Positions 4,860-31,628 of a DNA stretch of 64,000 nt are shown one piece after another (the stretch's first letter is position 1; each line of letters begins with the position of its first letter). A model generated the notes under the pieces. The model searched no databases and was not told where the DNA came from. It saw nothing but the letters and a program-made list of their open reading frames with translations. Location: positions 17,220 to 81,219 of the forward strand of contig WLST01000002.1 in the NCBI GenBank assembly GCA_009711295.1, written 5' to 3'. Made by a program: the position numbers and the translations under genes. Source of the DNA: Actinomycetota bacterium. Its GTDB lineage: Bacteria; Actinomycetota; Acidimicrobiia; Acidimicrobiales; Ilumatobacteraceae.

Positions 4860-5623
4860 AAATCGCAGCAATTCAACACAACATTCATTGGCTCGATCGA
4901 GAAGCCAATTTTGCTCAGCTTGAAACTCTTATTGCCTCTGCGGCAAAAGATGAGGCGCGACTTGTTGTATTGAGTGAAATGTTCTCTACTGGTTTCGCGA
5001 TGGGTGAAAAGTGGATGAATGAATTGCCAGAGCCATTTAATGGCCCGAGCGCGCAGTTCTTGCAACGCATGGCACAGAAGTACAGCGTATGGGTGGGCGG
5101 TACGTGTCCAGAATTATCTGAGACCAACGAAGATTTGCCAGGAAACACTTTCATCGTTTCTGCGCCAGACGGAGCGCTGACGCGTTATGTGAAGATCCAT
5201 CCGTTCACATACAGCGGCGAAGACAAATGGTTTCGTGCTGGATCCAACACAGTGATGCTCAGTATTGAGGGAATCACTGTTGCGCTTTTCGTGTGTTATG
5301 ACCTGCGATTCGTTGAAGAATTTTGGAATTGCGCAGAAGAAACCGATGTGTATCTCGTTCCTGCTAATTGGCCAGAGAGTCGCCGTGAACATTGGTTGGC
5401 GTTATTGCAGGCCCGCGCAATTGAAAACCAGGCCTATGTGGTGGGTGTGAACCGCGTCGGCTCGGGCGGGTCTTTGGTGTATTCGGGAGACAGTCGCATA
5501 TTTGGTCCCCTGGGAGAAGTGCTCGCCGCAGGTGGTGCCACAGAAGAAATTCTCTTTGCTGACGTGACAAAAGAGCACGTAGCGAAAACACGCCAGAGTT
5601 TCCCTTTTATGAAAGATCGTTAG
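4856..5623 (+). CDS. carbon-nitrogen hydrolase family protein, YafV/Nit2-like omega-amidase
   Basis: MKIAAIQHNIHW... with the catalytic Glu context LSEMFSTGFAM and the Cys context LFVCYDLRF. Its ATG at 4856 overlaps the upstream stop (ATGA). The longer ORF starting at 4799 would overlap the aminotransferase. Confidence 0.8.
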   Translation: MKIAAIQHNIHWLDREANFAQLETLIASAAKDEARLVVLSEMFSTGFAMGEKWMNELPEPFNGPSAQFLQRMAQKYSVWVGGTCPELSETNEDLPGNTFIVSAPDGALTRYVKIHPFTYSGEDKWFRAGSNTVMLSIEGITVALFVCYDLRFVEEFWNCAEETDVYLVPANWPESRREHWLALLQARAIENQAYVVGVNRVGSGGSLVYSGDSRIFGPLGEVLAAGGATEEILFADVTKEHVAKTRQSFPFMKDR

Positions 5624-7893
5624 TCAGAGTATTTCGGCCACTGCGAGAATTTCTCTAAAGAGATCACCGTATTGCGCATTTGTTCTGGAGCCACGGGATG
5701 CGAAATGAGGTAACCCTGAGCCTTGGCGCAGCGCAGGTCGATGAGTGCTTCTAGCTGGCGAGAGGTTTCCACTCCTTCGGCAACAGTGTCGAGGCCGAGA
5801 GCATCGCTCATTGCCAAGATGGTTTTAACAAGAGAACGAGCACTGACGTCATCGGCAATTCCGCTAATGAATGACCTGTCAATCTTAAGGCGTTGAATGG
5901 GGAAGCTCTGGAGAAGCGACAGCGAAGAATAGCCAGTACCAAAATCGTCAATGGCTATTCGCACGCCAAGGGTATTGAGTCGGCGCAAGGCGGCAAGAGC
6001 TTGCTCGGGTTCGGTAATCATGATGCTTTCGGTCATCTCAAGCCACAACTGTTGTGGTTGAACGCGCGCCCGCGACAGGGCCTCGCTGACCACCGACACG
6101 AATTGTGGGTCATGTAGTTGTCGAGGTGACACGTTGACAGACATTGAAGCGGTCTCTGGGCAAATACCAGCATCGATCCAACTACGTAGGTGTGTGAGAG
6201 CTTCAATGAGGGCCCATGCGCCTATCGGTACGATGATGCCCGTCTCTTCGGCAATAGGAATGAATTGTGCTGGTGAACTGGTGGATCCGTCTTCGCGCTC
6301 CCATCGCATGAGTGCCTCAAAGCCAAGAACATCACCTAGATGTAGGTCAATAATGGGCTGATACACAAGAGTGAGTTCTTGTCGCTCGAGTGCTCTATAG
6401 AGAGCCGTTTCTAGTGTGAGTCGTTGAGTTGCCCGTTCAAGCATCGAAGCGTCGAACAAAGCGATGCAGTTACGTCCGGCGTCTTTAGCACGGTACATCG
6501 CAGCGTCAGCATGCCGAAGAAGTTCTTCTGGAGACGGGGAGTCGGCTACAGCTGAACACGCCACCCCAATGCTTGCTGAAACGAATACGTCACCCTGGCG
6601 CAATGCAAGAGGCTCGCGAAAACATTCCAGAAGTCGTTCGGCGGTCTTCATGGCCTCAATATCGCTGACACTGTCGGGTTCGAGAACAACAAACTCATCG
6701 CCGCTAATACGCCCGACGATGGCCGTTGCAGGTACAGCATTAGTGAGTCGTTGGGCGACTGCTACCAAGACATCGTCGCCAGCACTATGGCCAAGTGAGT
6801 CATTAATATTTTTGAATCGGTCTACGTCAATGAAATGGACAGCTGGAACTCTTCCGGTCCTCCATGCGTTGTCGACAGCTTCTTCTATGTGTTTCAACAT
6901 GAGAGAACGATTGGGGAGAAGAGTGAGCGCATCGGTTTGTGCTGTTTTGACGAGCACAGCTTGTGTGCGTGCATTGGTTCTTACTGCTTGTATCACTCGT
7001 GCAGTCACCGATGCGGCGAGCACAAATAAAGATATTGCGCGAATAACGCGGTCGACCTGGTTGCGCGGATCAAAAAGTGCAATGGTGATGAGTGGAACCA
7101 CGAGCGCAGTAGTGGTGAGCACGAGTCGACCGAGCAACGGCTGACGCTGACGCGTGGTGCTGCGATGGGTGAGGCTGCGCACCGAGGGGTGCAAGAAGGT
7201 TGCAGACGCCATAAAGAGGCTGATGACGTAAGGCGCATTGAGGAAGCGATCGGAAACACTCGCATGGCCAGATTTGTCTAAAGCAAAAAGGAAGTCTCCG
7301 AGTAGCGAAAGTGAAATAGCACCAAAAAGCAACCAAATGGAAGGCGTGCGGTTTGCCTCGCTAAAGAGCAACGAGACGAGAAGGAAAAGAACAATTGTGC
7401 TCGTAGCCAGGGTGATACCTCGCAAGGCACTGATGACGGTTGGTTCACCGGCAATGTTCAGCGATGGTTGAAGAAGCCCAACCCAAATGAGTAGCCAAGC
7501 TCCGAGCGCAACGACTAACGCATCACCGAGTGAGTTCAGAATCGCGGTCCCGTTGCGCCTCAGCGTGACGAGAAGAAGCGCGCTAGCGAGAAGTATTTGA
7601 ACGGCAAGGAAAAATGATTCCGAGACGATACGCAATGTTTCAGAAGCCAAAGAATTGTCTGCCAATATTTGCCCAGCGACAGTAAAAAGAGAAACGCCTA
7701 AAATGACGAGCCATGCTCGGGGGTCAGGTCGATGTGCAAAAAACCCGATGACGACACAAATGGCTAACTGGGTGGCTGCAACGAAATAGAAGGTGTTCCC
7801 AACAGTTGCGGACGGGGTCAAGATATTGACCAGCCCGAGAACCACTCCCACGGCCCCGACGAACCATGCCAATTGAGAAAAGCTTTTGCGCAC
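5620..7893 (-). CDS. membrane-anchored GGDEF/EAL protein (c-di-GMP turnover)
   Basis: 757 aa. About 300 aa of multi-pass hydrophobic N-terminus. The GGDEF domain reads RISGDEFVVL (SGDEF variant). The EAL domain has GFEALMRW, DDFGTGYSSL and KIDRSF. GTG start. Confidence 0.9.
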   Translation of the reverse strand: MRKSFSQLAWFVGAVGVVLGLVNILTPSATVGNTFYFVAATQLAICVVIGFFAHRPDPRAWLVILGVSLFTVAGQILADNSLASETLRIVSESFFLAVQILLASALLLVTLRRNGTAILNSLGDALVVALGAWLLIWVGLLQPSLNIAGEPTVISALRGITLATSTIVLFLLVSLLFSEANRTPSIWLLFGAISLSLLGDFLFALDKSGHASVSDRFLNAPYVISLFMASATFLHPSVRSLTHRSTTRQRQPLLGRLVLTTTALVVPLITIALFDPRNQVDRVIRAISLFVLAASVTARVIQAVRTNARTQAVLVKTAQTDALTLLPNRSLMLKHIEEAVDNAWRTGRVPAVHFIDVDRFKNINDSLGHSAGDDVLVAVAQRLTNAVPATAIVGRISGDEFVVLEPDSVSDIEAMKTAERLLECFREPLALRQGDVFVSASIGVACSAVADSPSPEELLRHADAAMYRAKDAGRNCIALFDASMLERATQRLTLETALYRALERQELTLVYQPIIDLHLGDVLGFEALMRWEREDGSTSSPAQFIPIAEETGIIVPIGAWALIEALTHLRSWIDAGICPETASMSVNVSPRQLHDPQFVSVVSEALSRARVQPQQLWLEMTESIMITEPEQALAALRRLNTLGVRIAIDDFGTGYSSLSLLQSFPIQRLKIDRSFISGIADDVSARSLVKTILAMSDALGLDTVAEGVETSRQLEALIDLRCAKAQGYLISHPVAPEQMRNTVISLEKFSQWPKYSD

Positions 7894-12238: not shown

Positions 12239-13372
12239 CTATGGAGTCAGTGTTTCTTTGAGCGCCTGTCGTTGAGGTTTGCCGAGGGCGCTTCGCGGAA
12301 TGCTGTTCATGATGACAACCTGACGGGGGGCCATGAATCGCGGCAGTGACTCAGACACGAAATCTCTCCACTCGACCAATGAATGCGTAGCCGAGATATT
12401 TGTCGGCACGATGAAGGCAACAACTCGCTGGCCCCACTCGTGGTCGTCTACGCCCACAACGCATGCGTCGCTCACGTCGGGGTGATTCATGAGAGCGGCT
12501 TCCACCACTTCTGGCCAGATATTTTCGCCACCTGAAATGATGAGCTCATTTCGTCGTCCGGTCACAGACAGTTGATGATCTGAGCTCAAACTTCCGAGAT
12601 CACCAGTATGTAGCCACCCCTCATTGTCGATGGGGTGACTCAACTGCTGTTGGTAGTAACGGTTCATGAGGAAGGGTCCGCGTACCAAAATTTCTTGATC
12701 TGCCGATATAGAAATTTCTACACCAGTCAGTGCGGTGCGGTTGTACACAACGCCACCCATCGTTTCTGTCAGACCGTATGTGGTGATGACATTTGATGGC
12801 AAAGTAGGCGGCGGTTTCGCTCCGCCGAGGAGGATGTTTTCAAACAATGCGGAATTAATGCGTCCGAGCGCTGTTGCAACAAGTGAAGTATGCGTGATGC
12901 CTTGACGGGCGAGGCTCTCTACCTGTTCCGCATCAAACTGTGGAACGGCCGTTAATTTGCAATTCCATAAAAGTGCTCGAGAAATCACACCGAAACCGCC
13001 AACATGGGATGGGGGTAAACAAGCGAGCCAATGCATACCCGATGTGTCGCCAAAATACTGAGCAACGATGTTGGCGTTGGCGCGCAGTGAATCGTGTGTG
13101 TGTATTACTCCCTTTGGTGTGCCACTGCTGCCAGAGGTAGTGAAAAGCACCGCATCATTCTCGGTGATCGTTGACTCTTGTTTCTCAAGAACGCTGCGCC
13201 CTTCGGGGGAGATGATTTCTTGGACGCAGAAATCTTTAACGAGTTGGTCTCTTTGCTTGTGTGGAAGGCGCTGATCGATGGGAAATGCGCAGTCGCCTGC
13301 ACTCCAAATATCTTGAAGCGTATTGACGAACTCGGCAGATAACGGGATGTCGATACCCACGAGTTTGCGCAT
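12239..13372 (-). CDS. menE: o-succinylbenzoate-CoA ligase (adenylate-forming enzyme)
   Basis: AMP-binding motif TSGSSGTPKGV and a short MenE-like length. It sits beside menA in a men gene neighbourhood. ATG 13372 is preferred over TTG 13378. Confidence 0.75.
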   Translation of the reverse strand: MRKLVGIDIPLSAEFVNTLQDIWSAGDCAFPIDQRLPHKQRDQLVKDFCVQEIISPEGRSVLEKQESTITENDAVLFTTSGSSGTPKGVIHTHDSLRANANIVAQYFGDTSGMHWLACLPPSHVGGFGVISRALLWNCKLTAVPQFDAEQVESLARQGITHTSLVATALGRINSALFENILLGGAKPPPTLPSNVITTYGLTETMGGVVYNRTALTGVEISISADQEILVRGPFLMNRYYQQQLSHPIDNEGWLHTGDLGSLSSDHQLSVTGRRNELIISGGENIWPEVVEAALMNHPDVSDACVVGVDDHEWGQRVVAFIVPTNISATHSLVEWRDFVSESLPRFMAPRQVVIMNSIPRSALGKPQRQALKETLTP

Positions 13373-13412
13373 ATGCAAAGGTTAGACCTCTATTACGTGC
13401 GACACTAATGAG

Positions 13413-14318
13413 GTGACAGATTCGCAATCACACGACAATCAGATACCGGCAGTAAAGCTCTGGATCATGGGCGCCCGGCCCAGAACTTTGCCAGCTGCTG
13501 TGGTGCCGGTCTTAGTGGGGGCGGCATTGGCGGTGGGAACAGCGCATCCGGTGTGGTGGCGTATCGCTCTTGCTCTTGTGGTGAGTCTCTCGTTGCAAGT
13601 GGGCGTGAATTACGCCAACGACTACAGCGATGGGGTCAAGGGCGCCGATGCCGTTCGTGTCGGGCCTGTGCGTCTGGTGGGCTCTGGTCTCGTGGCCCCA
13701 AGGTCTGTGAAGAGAGCAGCCTTCTTGTCGTTTGGCTGCGCAGCTGTATGCGGCCTCGTGCTGTCTTTGGCGACGACCCCGTGGCTCTTGCTCGTTGGGG
13801 TATGCGCAATTGCTGCTGGTTGGACCTATACGGGTGGGCCTCGGCCCTATGGCTACCTGGGACTCGGTGAGATATTCGTCTTCATTTTCTTTGGTGTGGT
13901 TGCGACGTTGGGTAGTGCGTATGTTGTTGCTGAAGAGCTCACTAGTGCAATGTGGATTTCGTGTGTTCCCGTGGGTTGTTTTGCCTGTGCACTACTTGTT
14001 GTGAACAACTTGCGCGACATACCAACCGATAGCAAAGTGGGTAAAAACACTTTGGCGGTGCGGCTAGGTGACGCGCGAACCAGACAGTTCTTTGTTTTCC
14101 TGTACGCACTGTCTGCAGCTTTCGTGGTTGCAGTGGCTATTCAAAAACCAGCAGCCATTCTCGGGCTTCTCGGTATTGCTAGTGCGCGTGGTGCAGTGCG
14201 AGCCGTACGTGGCGGAGCAAGTGGTCGCGACCTCATTGCGGTGCTCGGTGCAACAGGTAAGGCTCAGCTCATTTTTGGGTTGCTATTTTCGCTTGGTCTA
14301 CTCATTGCAAACCGCTAG
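13413..14318 (+). CDS. menA: 1,4-dihydroxy-2-naphthoate polyprenyltransferase
   Basis: UbiA-family polytopic membrane protein with NDYSDGVKGAD and RPRTLP. GTG start; ATG 13467 is an alternative. Confidence 0.88.
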   Translation: MTDSQSHDNQIPAVKLWIMGARPRTLPAAVVPVLVGAALAVGTAHPVWWRIALALVVSLSLQVGVNYANDYSDGVKGADAVRVGPVRLVGSGLVAPRSVKRAAFLSFGCAAVCGLVLSLATTPWLLLVGVCAIAAGWTYTGGPRPYGYLGLGEIFVFIFFGVVATLGSAYVVAEELTSAMWISCVPVGCFACALLVVNNLRDIPTDSKVGKNTLAVRLGDARTRQFFVFLYALSAAFVVAVAIQKPAAILGLLGIASARGAVRAVRGGASGRDLIAVLGATGKAQLIFGLLFSLGLLIANR

Positions 14319-15085
14319 CGCAACAAAATGAATTGTGACACAACTGAGCAGAATTCCGCAGGCTTCTGAAAAGGAACTGAATGGCCACACTGTGGAATGT
14401 GTGCATGCTGTGCGGCTGGCCCGATGAGGGCTTTCATCTCGACGGCAATGTTTGAAAATTTATGATCGTCATCGCCGGTAACGAGAAGTACGGGCATGGA
14501 GAGCTCAGAGAGTCTGTTCCATAAATCTTCTTGAGTACCAGTACCCATTTTGCGCAAGCTTTGAGCAAGTCCACTCGGATTGTTCTTGAGTCGAATCGAT
14601 ATGTCCGTTTCGTCGGGAACATAACCATCAAATATTGCTTGGCGGGTCCAGGTGTTGAGGAACTCTGCAAGCGGAGTTTGTTCAATGTTCTGTGCAATAT
14701 TTTCGTCGGCAACGCGGCGTGCCTCACGTTCCTCATTGCTACGTAGGCCAGGTGTGGCGCCACACAAGACCAAGCGCTTCACCGAGTTGGGTGATTGCAA
14801 AGCGCAATGGAGCGCAATGCGTGCACCAAGCGAGTAACCGATATACGTGGCTTCGCCGCATAGTTCAACAATCTGCTGTGCGGCTTGCCACAGATTGACT
14901 TCCTGCGCACTACTTCCGCCATGACCAGGAAGGTCGACAGAAATGATGTGGGGGGCACGGCCGGCAAGATCGTTGGCAAGTAATGAAGCAGTGCTGTGCC
15001 ACAACTCTTTTGCCTGGGTGAAGCCATGAAGAAGAACAATTTTCTCGAGAGAGTCAGATGGTCCTATTGAACTGTATGCAAGCAT
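14315..15085 (-). CDS. menH: alpha/beta hydrolase, probable SHCHC synthase
   Basis: HGF oxyanion region, nucleophile elbow GYSLGARIA, C-terminal His (CGHSVP). Lies in the men cluster. Start taken at the internal Met (MLAYSS...) because the longer ORF to 15181 overlaps the upstream DsbA-like gene. Confidence 0.65.
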   Translation of the reverse strand: MLAYSSIGPSDSLEKIVLLHGFTQAKELWHSTASLLANDLAGRAPHIISVDLPGHGGSSAQEVNLWQAAQQIVELCGEATYIGYSLGARIALHCALQSPNSVKRLVLCGATPGLRSNEEREARRVADENIAQNIEQTPLAEFLNTWTRQAIFDGYVPDETDISIRLKNNPSGLAQSLRKMGTGTQEDLWNRLSELSMPVLLVTGDDDHKFSNIAVEMKALIGPAAQHAHIPQCGHSVPFQKPAEFCSVVSQFILLR

Positions 15086-15099
15086 GCCTTGACTTGTGT

Positions 15100-15759
15100 T
15101 CACGAGGTGAGGGTTCGCGTTGCGAGCCTTCGCAGTACATTTTCGAATACAGCTACATCTTGCGCGCCTGGCACGGTCCATTTGCCATCAAAGACAAAAG
15201 TGGGAACAGCAGTGATGCCAAGTTCGCCAGCCAACGACAAGTCGCTGAGCACCTCTTCAAGACCTTCGTCAGATGCCAGATATTCGCGCGCGGTCTCTGA
15301 TGTGATTCCGGCGCGTTGAGCGCACGACACCAATATGTCTGAATTGCAGATGTCTTCACCATTGGTGAAGTACGCCTCGAGGAGCGCCTGTTTTAGCAGT
15401 ACTTGGGCCTCTGCGCCATGATGCACAAGAGCGAGGTGCAAGAGGCGATGTGCTTGCAAAGTATTTGCGCGTAGGGCGTTTTCCATATGAAATTCAATGC
15501 CGCTGTCGCTCGCAGCTGAGGTGACGTGGTTGATGATTTGATGTGCTTTTTCCATGCCGCCAAATTTTTTTGCATATCCATCGATGACAGGGCTAGGGGC
15601 ATTCCTGGGCGCAGATGGGTCGAGCTGGAACGGGCGAAAGGAGATGTTGATATCGAGTTCAACTCCTTCTGCGGTGAGGTTCGCCAGGGCGGTTTCAAAT
15701 CGCTTTTTGCCGATGTAGCACCATGGGCAAACGACATCAGACCAAATTTCTACGTTCAT
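15100..15759 (-). CDS. DsbA/FrnE-family thiol:disulfide oxidoreductase (no signal peptide seen)
   Basis: 219 aa. N-terminal CPWCY active site immediately after the start (MNVEIWSDVVCPWCYIGKKRF), typical of the FrnE / HCCA-isomerase-like DsbA subfamily. Confidence 0.85.
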   Translation of the reverse strand: MNVEIWSDVVCPWCYIGKKRFETALANLTAEGVELDINISFRPFQLDPSAPRNAPSPVIDGYAKKFGGMEKAHQIINHVTSAASDSGIEFHMENALRANTLQAHRLLHLALVHHGAEAQVLLKQALLEAYFTNGEDICNSDILVSCAQRAGITSETAREYLASDEGLEEVLSDLSLAGELGITAVPTFVFDGKWTVPGAQDVAVFENVLRRLATRTLTS

Positions 15760-15819
15760 AAGGTCACTCTAGAGCAGCTAAGAGTGCAAGTATTTACACC
15801 AGAGAAGAAATGGTGAAAA

Positions 15820-17568
15820 ATGACAGCACTAACGACGGCTAATGCACAAGCCACTTTTTGCGCAACCTTGGTTGACGAGTGGATTCGCGATGGAGTGCAA
15901 TATGCATACGTCGCCCCAGGATCCCGCTCAACGCCCCTGGCCTTAGCCCTGTCGGCATGTTCTGAGATGTCGGTTGAAGTATTCATCGACGAGCGTTGTG
16001 CAGCTTTTGCGGCTTTAGGTGTGGGCAAGGCAACCGGACTACCAGCGATTGCCTTGTGTACTTCGGGAACTGCCGCAACCCATTTTTCTGCTGCTGTCAC
16101 TGAAGCATCGCTTTCTGGGGTTCCTCTCATCGTGTGTACGGCCGATCGTCCACCGGAACTGCGAGACGTAGGCGCTGCTCAGACCATTGACCAAACTCAT
16201 TTGTACGGATCCGCAGTGAGGTGGTTCCATGACCCTGGCGTCGCTTCGTACGATGCAGCCCACACTTGGCGAGCTTTGGCTAACCATGTGGTAGCCCGAA
16301 CGATGGGTCCCATTGCAGGCCCCGTACATCTCAATTTGCCATTTCGTGAACCGTTGCTCGGCGAAGTGGTAGATATGCCACCTAAGCGACAGCACGACGC
16401 CACATGGTCAGGATTCCACGCAGGGCGTTCGCAGCTTTCCGATTGGGAAATTGATGATCTTGCTCATCGACTAGCAGGACGGCGTGGAGTCATTATTGCA
16501 GGTGATGTGGGAGCAGGTTTTGAACTTGCGACGTATACGTCGGCAGTAAGCGTATTGAGCTCGGTTCTGCATTGGCCAATATTGGCATGTCCTCTCAGTG
16601 GTGTGCGCGGAGGCTCGGCAAACATCGTTTCGCACTTTGACGGCATTGTGCGTTCACAAAGTGCTCACGGTGTATTGGCTCCGGAAGTGGTGTTACAGCT
16701 CGGTAAGCCTCCTGCTTCCAAGGTTCTTGGGCAATGGGTTGCTTCCACTCATGGTGAAGTCATTGCCGTTCATGGCCCAGGTACTTACCAAGATGCACAG
16801 CATGCGGCCTTCATGCACATTGAGGCTGATGTAGCGAACACGATTGACCGTTTGTGCTCGGTGGTCGCCTCCGTTGGCGATACTCGCGAGCAAGACATTC
16901 CATTGCGGTGGAACTCTTTGTGGAGAAACGCTCAGGCGGCGGCGGCCCAAAGTATTGAGCAGGTGTTGTCTGCTGAAGGAGAAGTTTCCGATCCTGCGAT
17001 TGCGCGCATGTTTGGCGAAATATTCTCCGTCGGCGTGGTCAGTTCGTCGATGCCGGTTCGCGATGTTGAGTGGTTTTCAAAAGGAAAGGAGAATGGCGTT
17101 CTCTTTTCCAATCGCGGAGCCAATGGTATAGATGGCGTTATTTCCACCTCTATTGGCATTGCTCAATCTCTGCGCACTCCCGTTGGCGTATACCTCGGCG
17201 ACGTCGCCTTTCTCCACGATGGATCATCGCTGGTCGGGTTGAAGAATCGCAATCTCAATATGCGTATTGTGGTTGCAGATAATGATGGAGGAGGAATATT
17301 TTCTTTCCTTCCTCAAGCTTCACAGGTTGAAAAAGGAGTATTTGAAAATCTCTTCGGTACACCTCATGGCGCAGATATTGCAATGCTGGCCCGTGCTCAT
17401 GGAATAGAAGTCCTTGAACCCAAATCGCTGAGTGAATTGAGTACAGCTATGCAAGGCTCAGGTACCGCCGTCATCTTGCTGAAAACTCATCGAGAGAGAA
17501 ACGTGATTATTCACGAGAAATTGCACGCAGCTATTGCGTCTTCTGTAGACGCTATGACGAATGCATAA
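15820..17568 (+). CDS. menD: 2-succinyl-5-enolpyruvyl-6-hydroxy-3-cyclohexene-1-carboxylate (SEPHCHC) synthase
   Basis: 582 aa ThDP enzyme. N-terminus TFCATLVDEW..., ThDP-binding region GDVAFLHDGSSL...VADNDGGGIFSF. Confidence 0.9.
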   Translation: MTALTTANAQATFCATLVDEWIRDGVQYAYVAPGSRSTPLALALSACSEMSVEVFIDERCAAFAALGVGKATGLPAIALCTSGTAATHFSAAVTEASLSGVPLIVCTADRPPELRDVGAAQTIDQTHLYGSAVRWFHDPGVASYDAAHTWRALANHVVARTMGPIAGPVHLNLPFREPLLGEVVDMPPKRQHDATWSGFHAGRSQLSDWEIDDLAHRLAGRRGVIIAGDVGAGFELATYTSAVSVLSSVLHWPILACPLSGVRGGSANIVSHFDGIVRSQSAHGVLAPEVVLQLGKPPASKVLGQWVASTHGEVIAVHGPGTYQDAQHAAFMHIEADVANTIDRLCSVVASVGDTREQDIPLRWNSLWRNAQAAAAQSIEQVLSAEGEVSDPAIARMFGEIFSVGVVSSSMPVRDVEWFSKGKENGVLFSNRGANGIDGVISTSIGIAQSLRTPVGVYLGDVAFLHDGSSLVGLKNRNLNMRIVVADNDGGGIFSFLPQASQVEKGVFENLFGTPHGADIAMLARAHGIEVLEPKSLSELSTAMQGSGTAVILLKTHRERNVIIHEKLHAAIASSVDAMTNA

Positions 17569-17584
17569 TTGCGTTCGTCATAGC
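17551..17584. terminator. 11-bp perfect inverted repeat spanning the overlapping menD/menF stop codons (possible bidirectional terminator hairpin)
   Basis: GCTATGACGAA (17551-17561), a 12-nt spacer, then TTCGTCATAGC (17574-17584). There is no clear U-tract on either side. Confidence 0.35.
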
Positions 17585-18799
17585 TTTAAATTTTGATTCT
17601 GTCTCAGCAAGTTCTAATTCAGGCTCACTATCGGCAACAATGCCGCCGCCAGCAAACAATCGTGCTGACATGAGGTCTGTGCTGAACTGAGCGCAGCGAA
17701 TAGTGACTGCCCAGGTTCCGTTTCCTTGTGCATCGCACCAGCCCACAGCGCCGCCATAGCGGCCACGATTCATGTGTTCCACCCTGTTGATGAGCTCAAT
17801 GGCTTCGGTGCGCGGAAACCCGCCAAGAGCAGGAGTAGGGCTGAGTTCTCGTGCGATCTCGAGAACGTGAGTATTCGTGTCAGATAACGGGCCTGTGACG
17901 TGCGTGCCAAGATGTTGAACATTGGCAACACTCACCACAGATGGCTCAGGTTCCCAATCAAGATACGAACACCACTGCAGCAATGTGTCGTGCACCATCT
18001 CTACAACAACTCGATGTTCAATTTGGTTCTTCTTGCTCGCGAGCAGATCGGCTGCATTCTGTGCGTCGGTGGCAGGGTCGCCGGTACGTGGCGTGGTCCC
18101 AGCCAAAGGATTGCTATGTACTATTCCTTTTTCCATGTGAACAAGCAGCTCTGGTGACGCCCCGACCAAATGATCAATAGAGAATTGGTAGCAGGTTGAA
18201 TATTGTTCGTGGAGGTATGTCAGAACCGAATGGATATTGAGAGGGGTGTCAGACTTCAGCTCGATATCTCGCGCAATGACTGCCTTCTCTATTTGCCCCG
18301 AACGAACAGCAGATCGCGCTTCACTAACAGCCGCTAGATATGTGGTGATCGGTGTGAGGGGAGTGTTGCTCAGATGGCGTTCAATATTTTTTTGCTGAAA
18401 TACCGGGGGAAGAGACCTCAACAACGATGTGACGACTTCGTCTACATGAACGAGGCGTTCTTTTTCAGACATCTCTGCATCTGTCAACACGGTGATTGAG
18501 GTGTATCCATCGCTGAATCGGCGAGCAAAAATATGTGGCACAAACAGGTCTTCTCGTTCTTCCCGTAAGAACGGGAGAAAGCCAAGAGCGATAGGACCAT
18601 CTTTGTCATGTTCGTCGGTGTAGTGATGTTGAATCTCGCTCAGGAAAGCATGCACTTGAGAAGGCCCGACGCGAGTGAATTGACCAGTGGATGCAATTCC
18701 CTCATCGCCATGAACGAAGAGCATCCCGTCTGAACCAGCAATATTGTGCAGATGTGGCAGGTTGTCTACTGCAACTGCAGTGGCGATGATTTGGCTCAT
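17552..18799 (-). CDS. menF: isochorismate synthase
   Basis: 415 aa chorismate-binding enzyme. C-terminal signature region GRYGGAVGW...AGGGIVADS. Confidence 0.85.
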   Translation of the reverse strand: MSQIIATAVAVDNLPHLHNIAGSDGMLFVHGDEGIASTGQFTRVGPSQVHAFLSEIQHHYTDEHDKDGPIALGFLPFLREEREDLFVPHIFARRFSDGYTSITVLTDAEMSEKERLVHVDEVVTSLLRSLPPVFQQKNIERHLSNTPLTPITTYLAAVSEARSAVRSGQIEKAVIARDIELKSDTPLNIHSVLTYLHEQYSTCYQFSIDHLVGASPELLVHMEKGIVHSNPLAGTTPRTGDPATDAQNAADLLASKKNQIEHRVVVEMVHDTLLQWCSYLDWEPEPSVVSVANVQHLGTHVTGPLSDTNTHVLEIARELSPTPALGGFPRTEAIELINRVEHMNRGRYGGAVGWCDAQGNGTWAVTIRCAQFSTDLMSARLFAGGGIVADSEPELELAETESKFKAMTNAIMHSS

Positions 18800-19509
18800 T
18801 AGTGATTTCGCGTGCCAGAGAGGAGCTGCGTAAGTCCTCCGCTGAGTTGTCTGTGCTCGGCATCGCTGAAACCTGCCGAGCGCAACATAGCGGTGAGTTC
18901 TGCGCGAGGTGGGAGATAAGCGACGCTGCGAGGAAGATAGCGGTAGGCCTCTTTATCTGAGAAGAGAGCTCCGATTTTCGGAACGATTTTTCCAAAATAG
19001 ATGTTGTTGCCAAAACGAATAATCGGATTATGCGGAACACCAACGTCGAGCAGAACCACCCTGCCACCTGGTGTGAGGACGCGAGCAATTTCGACAAAAA
19101 ACGTCGGTAAGTCAACGAGGTTGCGCAGGGCAAACCCACAAATGACTGCATCAACAGAAGACGCGGGAAACGGTAAGCGCAAAATATCTGCTTGTGTTCG
19201 AGGTGAACCTGAACGGTCGAAAGACAGCATGCCATAGGAGAGATCGACTGAAATTGCCATGTGACCTCTCTTTTGCAGGGAAATGCAAAGATCACCAGTG
19301 CCGCTCGCAAGGTCGAGAACACGCGAAGGAGACGAGAGACGGAGAGTCTCTATTGCTATTTTTCTCCATTTAGTGTCGAGACGAAAGGTCATGACCCTAT
19401 TCACAAAGTCATAACGCGAAGCGATGGTATCGAACATCTCCCGCACGGCTTGTTGCTTCGCATCACCCTGGGGAAGTGTTTCTTGTGCTTTATTTCGCTT
19501 AAATACCAC
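18799..19509 (-). CDS. menG: demethylmenaquinone methyltransferase (UbiE/MenG family)
   Basis: 236 aa. FDTIASRYDFVNRVMTF...WRK and the SAM motif VLDLASGTGD. TAATG junction with menF. GTG start. Confidence 0.88.
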   Translation of the reverse strand: MVFKRNKAQETLPQGDAKQQAVREMFDTIASRYDFVNRVMTFRLDTKWRKIAIETLRLSSPSRVLDLASGTGDLCISLQKRGHMAISVDLSYGMLSFDRSGSPRTQADILRLPFPASSVDAVICGFALRNLVDLPTFFVEIARVLTPGGRVVLLDVGVPHNPIIRFGNNIYFGKIVPKIGALFSDKEAYRYLPRSVAYLPPRAELTAMLRSAGFSDAEHRQLSGGLTQLLSGTRNH

Positions 19510-27623: not shown

Positions 27624-29519
27624 TTATTGCGTGATTTCTTTCAAGAACTCTGTTGCTTCGTTGATGTCTTTGATGCGCTTCAACGGCGGGAGTGCGTTGA
27701 TGATTGACCACCTGTAGCTCTTGCTTGCCAAGCGCGGGTCGAGCACAGCCACCACACCTTTGTCTGTTCGCGTTCGTATCAGGCGGCCTGTGGCTTGAGC
27801 GAGTGCAGTAATGGCCCGTGGTAGGTCGATCTCGGTAAAACCTTTCGCCCCATGTAGGTCTCGACGTGCCGCCAGCAGTGGGTTATTGCGATGAGGAAAA
27901 GGAATGCGGTCGATGACGACGAGCGAGAGTGCGCGACCAGGAATGTCGACACCTTCGAAAAAGCCTGCTGTTGCAAAGAGGCAACTGGTTTCGTCGAGGA
28001 GAAAGTCGCGCAGCAAACTTGGCTTTTGGTTTTCATCTTGAGCCAAGATGCGAAAGGGAAGGCGTTTGCGCATTTCTTCCACAGCGCTCGTGAGTGCGCG
28101 ACGACTGGTGAACAGGGCCAAGGTGCGCCCGCCTGCTGCGGTGATGAGTGTGGCTAATTCGTCGTGTACAGCATCGTCGCGTTGAGCGTTGGGGTCGGGA
28201 AGATGTGTTGCGCAATACAACCGACCTTGTTCTTCGTAGTTGAAAGGACTTCCTACATCGAGAACATGTACTTTGTCGGCCGACAACCCAATGCGCTCTG
28301 GCATCGATAGGGGAATTGTTGCACTGGTCATGATTGCCGTGTGTAGTGGCCAGACGAATTCGGCCAAAATAGGGCCGACGTCGAGTGGAGCAATAACGAG
28401 TTCGGGTCGTTCTGTTGTGCCTGAAACGAAGGGAACCGAAGTGGCGGAAACACGCAATACCGCATCGAGGTCGTCTGCGAAACGGGTGGCGAGTGTTTGA
28501 GCGCGCAACACCTTTTGTCGAACGGTTTCTAGTGTTGACTCAATTTTGCGAAGTGCGTCGAGGCATGAGTTCACGGTGATGCGCAATGTATTGAGTCGTT
28601 CAGCAATATCGACGGGAAGAGGCAGGCTGAGGCGAGTTTCTATATGTGGTGCAAACAGTGTGCGTAAATGGGCAGCGGCGTCGAACAACTCGGTGAGCAA
28701 TTTGTCGTCTTCAACTACTTTGTTCATTGCTGTTGCCAAAGTGGTTGCTCGTGAAGCGGAAATAGTGACCCCAACCGTGGCAGTGAGTGTGTCTTCTAGT
28801 TGGTGTGCCTCATCGAAGATGACAACTTCATGTTCGGGAAGGATGGCTCCACCGCTAGCAACATGAATGCCGTAAAGATGGGTGTTGACCACCACCACAT
28901 CGGCTGCGGCGGCACGGTACTTGGCGTGTTCGGCAAAGCACTGGCCGCCAGATGGGCATTTGGTTGCACCGGGGCATTCGTCGCTACCCACACTGACCGA
29001 TTGCCATGCTTTGTGATGCGGTTGCCAGTCGAGTTCGGCAATGTCGCCTGTAGGAGATTTCTCTGCCCACTTCACTAACTCTTTCACTTCTTTCTTCGTG
29101 GCAATTGCAAGGTCGTCGAGTTCTAGTTGCCCGTCGTCGTGCACCTCTGAGATGCGTTGCATGCAGACGTAGTTGCTGCGCCCTTTCAGAACTGCCCATG
29201 AGAATGGTTCAGGGAGTGTTGCTTCTAAAAGTGGGAGGTCATGAAGTGCGAGTTGATCTTGCAGTGTTTTGGTAGCGGTGGAAACAACCACACGTTTTCC
29301 CGACAAAATTGCAGGAACGAGATATGCAATTGTTTTCCCCGTACCAGTGCCGGCTTGAACAATGAGCGGTTGTTTGCTGTTGATGGCGTCCATGACCGCA
29401 AAAGCCATTTCACGTTGTCCTGGTCGATCTTCTGGATGCGAGAGTCCAGATGTCGCATGATGGATTCCTTGTTCCACGCGCTCTGTATTGAGCGGAGCAT
29501 CGGAAGGATTATCGACCAT
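27624..29519 (-). CDS. dinG: ATP-dependent DNA helicase, DinG/XPD-like (Fe-S type)
   Basis: 631 aa. Walker A AGTGTGKT, DEAH box (IFDEAHQL), and a cysteine cluster (C...CPGATKCPSGGQC) in the Fe-S position. Confidence 0.85.
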   Translation of the reverse strand: MVDNPSDAPLNTERVEQGIHHATSGLSHPEDRPGQREMAFAVMDAINSKQPLIVQAGTGTGKTIAYLVPAILSGKRVVVSTATKTLQDQLALHDLPLLEATLPEPFSWAVLKGRSNYVCMQRISEVHDDGQLELDDLAIATKKEVKELVKWAEKSPTGDIAELDWQPHHKAWQSVSVGSDECPGATKCPSGGQCFAEHAKYRAAAADVVVVNTHLYGIHVASGGAILPEHEVVIFDEAHQLEDTLTATVGVTISASRATTLATAMNKVVEDDKLLTELFDAAAHLRTLFAPHIETRLSLPLPVDIAERLNTLRITVNSCLDALRKIESTLETVRQKVLRAQTLATRFADDLDAVLRVSATSVPFVSGTTERPELVIAPLDVGPILAEFVWPLHTAIMTSATIPLSMPERIGLSADKVHVLDVGSPFNYEEQGRLYCATHLPDPNAQRDDAVHDELATLITAAGGRTLALFTSRRALTSAVEEMRKRLPFRILAQDENQKPSLLRDFLLDETSCLFATAGFFEGVDIPGRALSLVVIDRIPFPHRNNPLLAARRDLHGAKGFTEIDLPRAITALAQATGRLIRTRTDKGVVAVLDPRLASKSYRWSIINALPPLKRIKDINEATEFLKEITQ

Positions 29520-30195
29520 CGGTGGGTTCTACAAGCGCAATAGCTGCATCGAGTTCTGTGGCAGAGATATCGGGCCAAGTGCGCTCGGTAAAGAAGACCT
29601 TGGCGCCGGCGATTTGCCACAGGAGAAAATTTGAAATGCGGCTTTCGCCAGAAGTGCGAATGAGGACATCAACAGGTGGCATTTCAGGATCGTAGAGGTG
29701 CTGTGTGATGTCACTGGTCTCCACGTCACTGCGCAGGTTTTTGGCGTCAGACGATAGGCGTGCCGACCGTGTGAGTTCTGCTCTGCTTCCGTAGTCAAAA
29801 GCCACCGTCAAGGTCATACCGGTGTTGTTGCGAGTGTCGTCAATAGCTTTTTCAATGGAACGTTGAACAAAGACCGGTGTGCGTGCACCGCTCTCGTTGA
29901 ACTGGCGTCCAATCCAACGCACGCGAACATTGTTTTCATTCAATTCATCGATGCGCCCAAAGAGACGCTTGTGCATCGACAAAATGTGACGTACCTCGGT
30001 ACGAGGTCGTACCCAGTTCTCAGTAGAGAACCCATATACCGTCAGCCAGCCAATATTGCATTGAGAAGCGATGCGCACGATGTTGGCGAGTGCTTCTTCG
30101 CCGGCAGTGTGACCGTCGGTGCGTGGCAAGCCGCGACGGCGAGCCCAGCGGCCGTTGCCGTCCATGATGCAAGCAACGTGGAGCAGATGGGGCAT
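29509..30195 (-). CDS. uppS: cis-prenyltransferase (undecaprenyl/decaprenyl diphosphate synthase family), catalytic motifs intact, C-terminal RXG tail absent
   Basis: [38 protein letters not shown]. The protein ends ...[22 protein letters not shown], without the usual Y..R.RRFG tail. 11-nt overlap with the dinG start. Confidence 0.9.
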   Translation of the reverse strand: [228 protein letters not shown]

Positions 30196-30885
30196 AGATC
30201 CTTACGCTACCTGTGCGAACATAGGGAGGTGATTCGTCGACTCAAGGCCAGGGCAAAAGATCGTCTCCGGCGTGCTGTGGCGACCGGTGGGCGCACCGAT
30301 AACCCTGAAGAAGTGCTCGCACATGTGGTCATTGCAGGCGGCACACACAAGGAGTGGGCGTCTTTCGGCGCGAGTAAGTGGTCGCGCCGGTTAGAAGAGA
30401 TGGTGCAGGCCGTTGAGCGTGAAGGAGTGCAGTGGCTCACCGTGGTTCCGGTCTGCAGTGGGTATGAAGGAAACGAGACCTGCTCAGACGAAGATCAAAA
30501 AGATCTTGATGACGCCATTGCACGTGCAGTTCGGCACGTTTCAGGCCGCGTCGATGTGGTGGTACGGAGCGAACCTGACGGTCAAAAAAGATTTGTTGAA
30601 GTGGTCAATCATCTTCGGAACGACCGCGACGACATGTCGAGTCGTGCCACGTTGTCTGAGGTGCGTTTAGCCAAGGCGCTTTTGGCTCCCGCCGATGTTG
30701 AACCCGATCTTGTTTTAGTGCTTGGTCCACCTACCCAGCTACCAACTTCGCTCGTTTGGGAAATGGCCTATAGCGAACTGGTGTTTCTCGATATCGGTTG
30801 GAATGATTTAAGTGAGGAGCATCTCCTGATGGCGGTCGACGATTATCGCCGCCGCAATAGGAGATTCGGAGGAATCGACGCGTGA
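30187..30885 (+). CDS. UPPS-fold paralog with degenerate catalytic motifs but a retained C-terminal RRFGG tail (candidate non-catalytic cis-prenyltransferase subunit)
   Basis: By-eye alignment to UPPS: [12 protein letters not shown] versus [13 protein letters not shown], and [58 protein letters not shown] versus the UPPS C-terminal region. GTGA overlap with recO. The start is uncertain (ATG 30187, GTG 30229 or GTG 30277). The upstream ORF portion 29863-30186 is antisense to uppS. Confidence 0.7.
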   Translation: [232 protein letters not shown]

Positions 30886-31628
30886 GTACCCGCCCAGAGC
30901 GTGTGTATAGCGATAAGGGCGTCGTTTTACGTACTTACAAGCTCGGAGAATCTGACCGCATCGTGGTCTTGTTGACCGAAGCAAATGGCAAAGTGCGCGC
31001 AGTGGCCAAAGGCGTGCGGAAAACAAAATCTCGTTTTGGTTCTCGGCTCGAACCGTTAAGTCATGTTTCGGTGTTGTTATATCGCGGCCGTGAGCTCGAC
31101 GTGGTGAATCAGGTCGAGCCACTTGAGCCGGCTGGACCACTGCGGAACAATCTCGACAAGATGACACAAGGCATTGCAATGCTCGAAGCTGTTGAGCAAC
31201 TCACACCCGATCGAGAGCCAGTGCCACACATCTATGCAATGTTGGTAGGGGCTTTGCGAGAACTCGCCCGCAGTGGGTCGTCTCTCGTCGTCGCGGCGTT
31301 CTACTGGAAGCTCCTGGCGTCTGAAGGTCTCGCTCCTGAACTATTTGTCTGCGTGTCGTGCGGATCGGAGCTTGAGGAGCAGCAAACGCATTATTCATTC
31401 GATATTGAACAAGGCGGCATTCAATGCCGAACTTGCCGCTCGGGGAGAGCCTGTAGTGCAGAGGCGTTACATCTGCTGCGCCTCATTTTGGGGGGTCGGT
31501 TAGGGGAGGCACTTGCCCTCGAGGAGTCGCCAGCTGGTCATGAAGTCGGCCATCTGGCCACGCAAGCTGTAGAAAGTCACATAGAACGTCGGCTGCGGGC
31601 AGTGGGGATGTTCGAACGGCACGACTAG
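30882..31628 (+). CDS. recO: DNA repair protein RecO
   Basis: 248 aa. OB-fold N-terminus (VVLRTYKLGESDRIV...) and the zinc motif CVSCGSE...CRTC. A GGAGG Shine-Dalgarno lies 8 nt upstream of the GTG start. Confidence 0.9.
   Translation: MSTRPERVYSDKGVVLRTYKLGESDRIVVLLTEANGKVRAVAKGVRKTKSRFGSRLEPLSHVSVLLYRGRELDVVNQVEPLEPAGPLRNNLDKMTQGIAMLEAVEQLTPDREPVPHIYAMLVGALRELARSGSSLVVAAFYWKLLASEGLAPELFVCVSCGSELEEQQTHYSFDIEQGGIQCRTCRSGRACSAEALHLLRLILGGRLGEALALEESPAGHEVGHLATQAVESHIERRLRAVGMFERHD

Follow-up and report, generated by a model that had tools for sequence, protein, structure and literature searches.

A head-to-head gene pair of Ilumatobacteraceae-like Acidimicrobiia as a candidate heteromeric cis-prenyltransferase: a tail-less UppS and a non-catalytic paralogue that keeps the tail

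The homodimeric UPPS/DPPS enzymes of bacteria (e.g. E. coli UppS, those of M. luteus, S. aureus and T. fusca, and M. tuberculosis Rv2361c) carry an active site and a C-terminal RXG tail on every subunit. In heteromeric enzymes, such as human DHDDS/NgBR (NUS1) or yeast Rer2 or Srt1 with Nus1, the catalytic subunit has a complete active site and lacks RXG. The motif acts in trans in NgBR/DHDDS as well as in homodimers. In every solved cis-prenyltransferase the tail reaches over the dimer interface to close the S2 site of the partner, and homodimeric DHDDS without NgBR has ~400-fold lower activity. Prokaryotic heteromers are found in Methanosarcina (MM_1083/MM_0618; MA3723/MA4402) and Archaeoglobus (Af1219/Af0707); these are soluble, two-subunit, medium-chain (C45-C60) enzymes that serve a glycosyl carrier lipid, and the origin of heteromeric cis-prenyltransferases lies in Euryarchaeota according to published scenarios. 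The literature that we searched describes heteromers from eukaryotes and Euryarchaeota only, in agreement with an earlier note on this DNA, and holds no description of a bacterial two-subunit cis-prenyltransferase; reviews from 2025-26 treat all characterized bacterial CPTs as homomeric (the 2026 review speaks of the homomeric class). Outside this family, mint GPPS large/small and the bacterial heptaprenyl and hexaprenyl diphosphate synthases also pair a catalytic subunit with a partner that is itself inactive but required for activity (a paralogue in the case of mint GPPS). These heteromeric trans-prenyl diphosphate synthases share that dependence with the enzyme proposed below, but differ from it in their unrelated all-helical fold, their DDxxD mechanism and the lack of a tail donated in trans.

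Here we analyse a 64-kb stretch of DNA (the window) from a member of the Ilumatobacteraceae, in which two genes of the UPPS fold, called cat and par, lie head-to-head among these features:

29509-30195, minus strand: cat, 228 aa, candidate catalytic cis-prenyltransferase (UppS) subunit, lacking nothing but the C-terminal RXG tail
30187-30885, plus strand: par, 232 aa with its ATG at 30187, non-catalytic UPPS-fold paralogue and candidate RXG-donating accessory subunit
30187-30195, both strands: head-to-head overlap of the cat and par start codons (ATGGGGCAT)
30882-31628, plus strand: recO, with RecO_N and RecO_C domains and TIGR00613
27624-29519, minus strand: DinG/YoaA-like helicase, whose start (ATG) and the end of cat share 11 nt

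As the earlier note had read it, the two divergent genes start within the same 9 nt, and recO is translationally coupled to par through a GTGA overlap with the par stop (30882-30885). Because the helicase ATG overlaps the end of cat, these two genes are probably co-transcribed. The surrounding genes are phoH, ybeY, corC, men genes, era, recO, glyS, trp and fab genes, polA and uvrABC, and we found no natural-product cluster in the region around the pair; its gene context is core housekeeping.

The first of the two proteins, cat, has the anatomy of an ordinary UppS up to its last helix:

30142-30180, minus strand: P-loop of cat, 13 residues, Mg2+/FPP-diphosphate site, its Asp equivalent to E. 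coli D26
30004-30030, minus strand: FSTENWVRP of cat, equivalent to E. coli E73, N74 and R77, the tail-docking residues, all kept
29614-29661, minus strand: IPP-diphosphate-binding segment of cat, 16 residues, with the equivalents of E. coli R194, R200 and S202
29509-29577, minus strand: C-terminus of cat, 22 residues, helix alpha7 followed at once by the stop codon, RXG motif absent

The UPPS motifs quoted in the earlier note all lie where it had put them, in cat and in par, and alignment confirms the full set of P-loop, FSxENWxRP and RTSGExRxSNF residues in cat. The HMM search that the note had proposed returned both proteins. cat matches Pfam PF01255 with E=5e-66 and 222.7 bits, where the cutoff is 27, and covers 1-209 of the 219 profile positions; since the match ends there, the tail is the sole missing part. 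It is also a member of TIGR00055, the equivalog of bacterial UppS as autonomous polyprenyl diphosphate synthase (206 bits, above the cutoff of 109.55), and falls, like par, below every cutoff of the lineage-specific PRK equivalogs. Residues 6-222 match solved UPPS by phmmer (E=6e-49), and the enzymes of S. aureus, T. fusca and E. coli align with cat up to helix alpha7. Homodimeric bacterial UPPS are 40-50% identical to cat and have the same catalytic residues. By its sequence, cat thus has the intact active site without C-terminal RXG that characterizes catalytic subunits in the heteromeric class.

The missing tail could in principle be an artefact of an assembly frameshift, or par a pseudogene remnant of a duplicated uppS. 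We looked for the 3'-end frameshift that the earlier note had named as a possible refutation and found none: cat stops ~10 residues short of the RXG position, no tail follows in any of the three downstream frames, and the stop overlaps the start of the helicase gene in ATGGTCGATAA. In six frames of the window, the only RRFG peptide is the one in par. MDGNGRW is present in 120/120 close cat homologues, while the tail is missing in 119/120 of the closest ones and in all syntenic partners. The one database homologue with a tail, P0122, would speak for an artefact, but it is identical to cat only as far as ...SNFLLWQIA, where a canonical C-terminus of unrelated sequence abruptly takes over, and it comes from one 1.5-kb contig, a pattern that indicates a chimeric assembly. 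As for decay, par has a confidently predicted fold, an intact ORF in 23+ loci and an ω of 0.04-0.05. These results effectively refute artefact and decay alike, which we regard as having a negligible chance of being right.

The second protein, par, has lost what cat retains and retains what cat has lost:

30322-30360, plus strand: degenerate P-loop of par, 13 residues, D26 replaced by an invariant Gly, N28 by H and R30 by E (E. coli numbering)
30700-30786, plus strand: betaE / linker / betaF of par, 29 residues, catalytic Arg and Ser replaced; the most conserved block of the protein
30850-30882, plus strand: C-terminal tail of par, 11 residues, RXG being R226-F227-G228 at 30862-30870
30205-30279, plus strand: N-terminal basic helix of par, 25 residues, clade-specific

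PF01255 matches par with E=2e-12 (47.4 bits, cutoff 27) at profile positions 116-219 only, and its 35.5 bits against TIGR00055 are below 109.55, so it is not a member. Profile-profile alignment (hhalign, probability 99.6%, E=4e-24) makes residues 38-231 homologous to UPPS and recovers the same three P-loop replacements. Further losses in the alignment are R194 to V, R200 to Q, S202 to P and the absence of S71/N74, with deletions of ~7 residues at R39/H43 and of at least 26 residues spanning alpha3. The AF2 model has a pLDDT of 85, and its top 50 Foldseek matches are all cis-prenyltransferases, almost all of them UPPS (probability 1.0, TM 0.52-0.6). According to this model, par is a folded UPPS-type protein over its whole length. 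The low pLDDT of the tail in the monomer model is consistent with a flexible segment. The proposals that par has the UPPS fold, that its catalytic Asp is Gly, that the Arg/Ser residues of its diphosphate segment are gone and that RRFGG is intact therefore hold, and the complementary loss, which matches the architecture of heteromeric cis-prenyltransferases, stands on a proper alignment and not just by eye.

Conservation in par is concentrated in the parts that would contact a partner. The family comprises 209 matches, and among the 120 listed every full-length one ends in RRFG, usually RRFGG[IL]D (P0006 is incomplete and was not counted as full-length). R223, R225, R226, F227, G228 and G229 do not vary among 69 diverse members of the family. 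The linker block, the counterpart of the linker at the subunit interface in known cis-prenyltransferases, has invariant columns at P168, D174, L175, G180, P186, S188, L189, W191, E192, Y195, E197 and V199; in total, there are 24 such columns, of which 18 fall in the stretch from residue 168 to the tail, the part that holds interface linker and tail in DHDDS/NgBR (interface as defined in PMC7573591). Substitution rates agree, with ω at 0.02-0.04 for cat, 0.04-0.05 for par and 0.004-0.017 for the last 77 codons of par (dS 0.7-1.6). Both genes are thus under strong purifying selection, and par is therefore not a relic. By sequence, fold and conservation, par has the features of an accessory subunit of the heteromeric class. 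Neither protein combines catalytic residues with RXG, as each subunit of a homodimeric UppS does; the two are here on separate polypeptides.

The likeness to DHDDS/NgBR extends to smaller changes. The equivalent of E. coli E213 is present in NgBR (IRLTEI) and invariant in par; it is lost in DHDDS (SHSC) and relaxed in cat (K/R/Q/A/P/H, rarely E). The RTSGE segment has become x-x-G-P in both accessory subunits (LKFGP in NgBR, LVLGP in par), and in both systems evolution is faster in the accessory than in the catalytic subunit. We considered par as an NgBR/Nus1 orthologue and rejected this, as it matches NUS1 with E=0.29 against 3e-11 to 1e-7 for bacterial UPPS and has no membrane anchor. Being closer to bacterial UPPS than to NgBR, par has an independent origin, and the resemblance is convergent. 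The differences are also structural: par has neither a hydrophobic N-terminal segment nor a transmembrane anchor, only a basic helix (residues 5-32, pLDDT 53-71 in AF2, net charge up to +7 per 18 residues, hydrophobic moment ~0.55) that is kept in the group at 55-90% identity and missing from distant paralogues; cat lacks the C-terminal helix-turn-helix of DHDDS and with it a tetramerisation module; the two genes are adjacent and divergent; and the expected product is medium-chain, for peptidoglycan synthesis, rather than dolichol. The archaeal heteromers resemble the proposed enzyme in the features given above. They belong to another domain of life and a separate lineage, and no archaeal accessory subunit was among the matches of par in the solved-structure search.

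The survey of relatives that the earlier note had suggested places the pair in an evolutionary setting. Tail-less cat and par occur head-to-head in 24 loci of Ilumatobacteraceae-like Acidimicrobiia (21 sources, i.e. 20 loci and the window, plus 3 more distant loci added later), with par identity down to about 33-40% and start spacings of 40-180 bp in other lineages. Two gene orders are conserved across loci: cat followed by the helicase, and par followed by recO and glyS. No locus where both sides are readable has a lone cat or par; L011 and L013 show par alone at the very start of a contig, with no upstream DNA to check. In 63 sister Acidimicrobiales loci (order helicase, uppS, recO, glyS), one full-length uppS with catalytic motif and tail sits exactly in the slot of par. 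The earlier note had recO in the usual uppS position, and here it needs correction: it is par that holds the ancestral uppS slot. par shares with full-length Acidimicrobiales UppS a lineage-specific 10-residue signature in the betaE/linker/betaF segment, and its C-terminal region is 38% identical to these enzymes against 20% to cat. par, with the fold, tail and recO-adjacent housekeeping locus of homodimeric bacterial UPPS, is the positional orthologue of Acidimicrobiales uppS, and cat is the inserted copy, co-oriented with the helicase. The pair thus differs from DHDDS/NgBR in that par descends by position from a resident bacterial uppS, and from the archaeal heteromers in having arisen within Acidimicrobiia from bacterial uppS.

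A first alternative is that cat is a self-sufficient homodimer without RXG and that par is a non-enzymatic UPPS-fold protein with a different role, such as to bind lipids or polyprenyls, to regulate, or to act as a scaffold to another partner. Tail-less cis-prenyltransferases can work alone, as does the Methanosarcina mazei homodimer MM_0014, UppS relatives without a tail turn up sporadically in other contexts (e.g. bacterial P0246, beside a trans-prenyl synthase), DHDDS homodimers have residual activity, and the clade-specific basic helix of par might point to another interaction. Yet MM_0014 is but a distant relative of cat (E=2e-14), ends in TLGG, has no dedicated dead partner and shows a relaxed acceptor specificity (O-prenylation), an altered chemistry that contrasts with the fully canonical IPP site of cat. 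Moreover, an invariant RRFGG (ω about 0.01) on a dead protein has no known role in cis, the tail acts on the partner's site in all solved structures, cat keeps the residues that dock it, and the two genes co-occur without exception. We consider this reading improbable.

A second alternative accepts the heteromer and gives it another task: a normal homodimeric uppS elsewhere would make the carrier, and the product of cat and par would differ (another chain length, or a Z-prenyl primer as for mycobacterial Rv1086). Many actinobacteria have two cis-prenyltransferases (e.g. Rv1086 and Rv2361c), and the analysis covered 64 kb of this genome. On the other hand, the normal uppS slot of sister lineages holds the dead copy here, which points to a gene replaced and not to one added; when 1.84 billion representatives were searched exhaustively, no close sister family of cat with a tail came up, and the nearest matches that have one are <=50% identical; and the gene context is that of core housekeeping. 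This, too, seems unlikely.

We consider it probable that cat and par are the subunits of an obligate heteromeric cis-prenyltransferase in which the par tail completes the IPP site of cat in trans, a reading that is supported as far as sequence analysis reaches. cat would provide the sole active site, made up of the Asp/Mg2+ site in the P-loop, the sites S1 and S2 for the diphosphates of FPP and IPP, and the tunnel for the product. par, whose own P-loop Asp, basic residues, FSxENW segment and tunnel elements (helix alpha3 and strand betaC) are gone, would contribute the dimer-interface elements and its RRFGG tail. In the dimer, this tail would thread into the S2 site of cat, where Phe/Gly backbone amides would bind the IPP beta-phosphate and the tail Arg would contact a Mg2+-bound water. 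The analysis establishes the sequence anatomy, fold, conservation, synteny and selection of the pair; heterodimer formation, tail insertion and the identity of the product are inferred, with strict co-occurrence and the conserved interface region lending indirect support to a physical complex. The product is most likely a C50-C55 polyprenyl diphosphate that leads to the cell-wall lipid carrier.

The pair may have originated when a second uppS copy was inserted, in inverted orientation, between the resident uppS and the helicase. Catalysis would then have been lost in the resident copy, which would have made the tail of the new copy useless and led to its loss, and these complementary losses would have locked both genes together. 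On its long branch, cat shares 48% identity with the UppS of Acidimicrobiales and 42% with that of other bacteria; because a recent origin of cat by duplication of the resident gene is not clear, we infer this order of events.

Ilumatobacteraceae-like Acidimicrobiia are abundant freshwater and marine actinobacteria. We lean, by a little, towards the view that they rely solely on a two-subunit UPP synthase, which would have arisen independently of the archaeal and eukaryotic DHDDS/NgBR system by complementary degeneration, the resident uppS losing catalysis and becoming the tail donor and the inserted copy losing its tail. If true, the pair would represent the first heteromeric cis-prenyltransferase from bacteria. 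It would also offer a clean example of an obligate heteromer that evolved convergently and possibly neutrally, with convergence extending to secondary changes, namely in the Glu equivalent to E213 and in the interface linker with its replacement by G-P.

Two open reading frames (ORFs) resembling the Pfam Prenyltransf family PF01255, and only two, are found within the 64-kb window. They stand head to head, next to a helicase gene.

Genes of the cat/par locus
27624-29519, DinG/YoaA-like helicase, downstream of cat, its ATG overlapped by the cat stop
29509-30195, minus strand, cat, ORF of 228 aa, the candidate catalytic UppS subunit without the C-terminal RXG tail
30187 (ATG) to 30885, plus strand, par, ORF of 232 aa, the UPPS-fold paralogue with a dead active site and a kept RRFGG tail

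As the earlier note had read them, the start codons of cat and par lie within the same 9 nt (ATGGGGCAT, 30187-30195), and the par stop overlaps the GTG start of recO in a GTGA (30882-30885). The cat stop overlaps the helicase ATG by 11 nt (29509-29519, within ATGGTCGATAA), so that cat sits in the 5' region of the helicase gene and is probably co-transcribed with it. A promoter and terminator scan of the divergent cat/par region returned no consensus sites. The surroundings are core housekeeping genes (phoH-ybeY-corC, menaquinone genes, era, recO, glyS, trpCFBA, fab genes, polA, rpsA, uvrBAC, gap and pgk). The menaquinone biosynthesis cluster (12239-19509), located between the phoH-ybeY-corC block and era, carries menE-like (AMP-binding enzyme), menA-like (UbiA-family prenyltransferase), menH-like (alpha/beta hydrolase), menD-like (TPP enzyme) and menF-like (chorismate-binding enzyme) genes, together with one for a UbiE methyltransferase. 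A gene for a 757-aa GGDEF-EAL protein of cyclic-di-GMP turnover (5620-7893), located upstream of the phoH-ybeY block, has no relation to cat or par.

At the family level, cat matches PF01255 (E=5e-66, profile positions 1-209 of 219) and passes the NCBIfam uppS equivalog TIGR00055 (206 bits vs a cutoff of 109.55), with all motifs quoted earlier found where expected. Its residues 5-6 to 212-222 align with the solved UPPS/DPPS of S. aureus, T. fusca, E. faecalis, M. tuberculosis and E. coli (E=6e-49 to 3e-44), and the alignment ends where those proteins run on into ...R-x-RRFGG. The residues that receive the tail are kept, in that FSTENWVRP holds the equivalents of E. coli E73, N74 and R77 (DHDDS E81, N82 and R85). 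A frameshift could in principle have hidden a tail, and we reject this explanation because no downstream frame encodes one; the only RRFG peptide in the six frames of the window is that of par. The loss is genuine, since 119 of the 120 closest database homologues (67-93% identity) share the same ending. The sole tail-bearing one (P0122, on a 1,468-bp ENA contig) matches cat exactly as far as ...SNFLLWQIA, where it changes abruptly into an unrelated canonical UppS C-terminus (...RERRFGKTSEQLT). Such a switch on a 1.5-kb contig is the pattern of an assembly chimera; P0122 is most likely a metagenome artefact joined at the conserved motif, and we set it aside as a tailed cat.

The kinship of par with the UPPS family, first proposed by eye, holds up in profile searches. 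Its match to PF01255 is significant (47 bits, E=2e-12, above the gathering score), covering profile positions 116-219 only, and its alignment with solved UPPS takes in their C-terminal 60-115 residues through to the very end (E=3e-11 for B. subtilis UppS). When a 69-member alignment of the par family was compared with a 45-member UppS alignment, profile against profile, the match covered par residues 38-231 (probability 99.6%, E=3.8e-24). Together with a MAFFT alignment using E. coli UPPS as the ruler, this establishes homology over the whole length and the loss of the active site.

Changes in par, by E. coli UPPS position
D26: G, an invariant Gly
N28: H
R30: E
R39/H43 region: about 7 residues deleted
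FSxENW motif, alpha3 and the following strand: at least 26 residues deleted
R194: V
R200: Q
S202: P

The AF2 model of par (pLDDT 85.2, pTM 0.77) has a correspondingly reduced set of elements, with low confidence in the last residues, as expected of a flexible tail, and its top 50 Foldseek matches in the PDB are almost all UPPS or related synthases (probability 1.0, TM 0.52-0.61). What par does keep, as claimed before, is the RRFGG tail, plus helix alpha7 and PDLVxVLGPPxxLPxSLVWE(M/L)AYSELVF. The par family has 209 database matches. Of the 120 listed, all full-length sequences terminate with RRFG, usually as RRFGG[IL]D, and a degenerate P-loop, H-V-x-x-x-G-G-T-x-x-E/D-W, is present in every one that reaches the N-terminal region. 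Eighteen of the 24 invariant family columns fall between residue 168 and the tail. In two Ilumatobacteraceae MAGs (loci L021 and L023) RRFGRLD replaces RRFGG(I/L)D with RXG itself kept, the second Gly being the only tail position seen to vary. At the other end of the protein, par residues 7-31 (30205-30279) form a strongly basic, moderately amphipathic helix (net charge up to +7 per 18 residues), whose core RLKxRxKxRLRRA is conserved in the group at 55-90% identity and absent from more distant paralogues. Speculatively, this helix might bind membrane or anionic lipid, like the NgBR anchor.

We fetched the genomic contexts of relatives and classified every UPPS-like ORF, which revealed a dichotomy of pair-type and single-type loci. 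The co-occurrence for which the earlier note proposed a survey is seen at 24 loci, arranged as helicase(-), cat(-), par(+), recO, glyS, in Ilumatobacteraceae and unclassified Acidimicrobiia MAGs, and par identity there drops to about 33-40%. Without exception, cat in these pair-type loci has the catalytic motif and lacks the tail, and par is the reverse. At the two loci where par appears alone (L011 and L013), it lies at the very start of the contig, with no upstream DNA to check. Single-type loci (n=63), from Microthrixaceae, Acidimicrobiaceae and other Acidimicrobiales, instead read helicase(-), uppS(+), recO, glyS, with one full-length uppS bearing both motif and tail; here, helicase and uppS are merely divergent neighbours about 40 bp apart. 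It follows from this dichotomy that par occupies the ancestral uppS slot and that cat is the inserted gene, co-oriented with the helicase. Additionally, par and the single-copy Acidimicrobiales enzymes have in common a lineage-specific signature where most bacteria have W-Q, and the par C-terminal region is 38% identical to these enzymes vs 20% to cat.

By neighbour-joining, the cat sequences form one clade (100/100 bootstraps) whose long stem lies next to, and not within, a clade including the Acidimicrobiales UppS; cat identity is 48% to Acidimicrobiales UppS and 42% to those representing other bacteria. When 1.84 billion representatives were searched exhaustively with HMMER, no close sister of cat with a tail turned up, and the nearest matches that have one are at most 50% identical. 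A recent inverted duplication at the DNA level is rejected, since no cat/par inverted repeat is detectable and the two proteins share only 20% identity over 80 aa. A DinB_2-family gene lies between cat and par in one distant lineage (L088, 4397-4972), so the linkage of the pair survives an interruption of their common promoter region. Record titles on some typical Acidimicrobiia loci (L011, L020, L014, L037, L051 and L083) read 'Bifidobacterium breve', 'Bifidobacterium sp.' or 'Acidobacteria bacterium', and are probably taxonomic mislabels of the bins.

Both genes are under strong purifying selection among close relatives.

Estimates of ω among close relatives (dS 0.7-1.6)
cat: 0.02-0.04
par, whole: 0.04-0.05
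par, first 110 aligned codons: about 0.06
par, last 77 codons: 0.004-0.017

In deeper pairs, ω is 0.08-0.11 (cat) and 0.11-0.29 (par). These values indicate that par is a functional protein, whose most constrained part is the predicted interface and tail. Overall, par evolves faster than cat, and the same rate asymmetry between catalytic and accessory subunits has been described for eukaryotic heteromers.

Whether the enzyme is NgBR/DHDDS or a homodimer, the RXG tail of one subunit reaches across the interface into the S2 (IPP) site of its partner, where the tail backbone amides bind the IPP beta-phosphate and the tail Arg contacts a Mg2+-bound water. Without NgBR, the activity of DHDDS is about 400-fold lower. 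The human subunit interface is built from the betaD-betaE/betaE-betaF linker together with neighbouring helices and is crossed by the tail (PMC7573591), and the kept segment of par, from residue 168 to the tail, is the equivalent of this linker and tail. The simplest reading is that cat and par would form a heterodimer with a single active site, completed by the tail of par. Once the active site of the resident copy was dead, the tail of its partner would have nothing to complete and could be lost; with that tail gone, cat-cat dimers would be crippled and the heteromer obligate, a self-reinforcing logic. We consider such an obligate heteromer likely. The fuller claim, that cat/par evolved independently and is the clade's only UPP synthase, we put forward more cautiously, at slightly better than even. 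The core housekeeping context favours a cell-wall carrier lipid as the putative product.

A further residue is divided between the two proteins. At the position of E. coli E213, par has an invariant Glu (E197, segment at 30757-30786), whereas cat, with K199 aligned there, is unconstrained (K, R, Q, A, P or H, and E in one lineage; segment IAGAKVFF, 29590-29613). In E. coli, E213 is said to have a role in IPP binding and kcat, and E213A reportedly raises the Km for IPP strongly. The human sequences in the PDB are split likewise, with NgBR keeping Glu (WHIRLTEIV) and DHDDS having Cys (WQTSHSCLVF). That the same Glu is split in both pairs suggests that it works with the tail or interface rather than with its own active site. 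Moreover, R-T-S-G-E has become x-x-G-P-x in both accessory subunits (NgBR LKFGPV, par LVLGPP).

The main rival is that cat is autonomous and works without par, because tail-less cis-prenyltransferases that act alone exist. The nearest tail-less relative of cat outside its family is P0246 (L087, 4248-4994), which is 52% identical, follows immediately after a gene for a trans-polyprenyl synthase and lacks any par-like partner; we regard it as an unrelated case rather than the same system. Canonical RXG is also missing in P0307, P0324, P0341, P0350 and P0375, representatives from the exhaustive search, so that, with P0246, tail loss has been repeated in bacteria.

Returning to the cat-par heteromer, both sequence-level defining features of the heteromeric cis-prenyltransferase class are present, and by predicted function the pair fits there. 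The likeness to DHDDS/NgBR drawn in the earlier note is one of functional class and not of descent: par matches human NUS1/NgBR at E=0.29 only, so it does not belong to the NgBR/Nus1 family and the likeness is convergent. In reviews from 2020 to 2026, all characterized bacterial enzymes are homomeric; heteromers are listed only from eukaryotes, Methanosarcina and Archaeoglobus, and are proposed to have arisen in Euryarchaeota. The earlier note knew of no such system from Actinomycetota, and a literature text search for heteromeric cis-prenyltransferase/undecaprenyl in actinobacteria/Acidimicrobiia returned nothing relevant, and neither Pfam nor NCBIfam holds a dedicated model for this type. 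Source records name par 'undecaprenyl diphosphate synthase (family protein)' or 'hypothetical protein' and cat as an ordinary UppS; metabolic reconstructions consequently overlook the predicted dependence of one on the other.

Since UppS is targeted by antibiotics, a split form of it would present a different set of vulnerabilities for drugs. Small, soluble and anchor-free, cat/par may also offer a simple model for how an RXG tail and interface linker activate a catalytic subunit, a question tied to disease mutations in human DHDDS/NUS1. More broadly, the pair would break the textbook rule that bacterial enzymes are homodimers and that heteromers belong to eukaryotes and some Euryarchaeota, where they are linked to long-chain products. 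An independent bacterial origin, if true, would mean that heteromeric architecture evolves readily via duplication and complementary loss, which would weaken its use as a marker of archaeal-eukaryotic ancestry.
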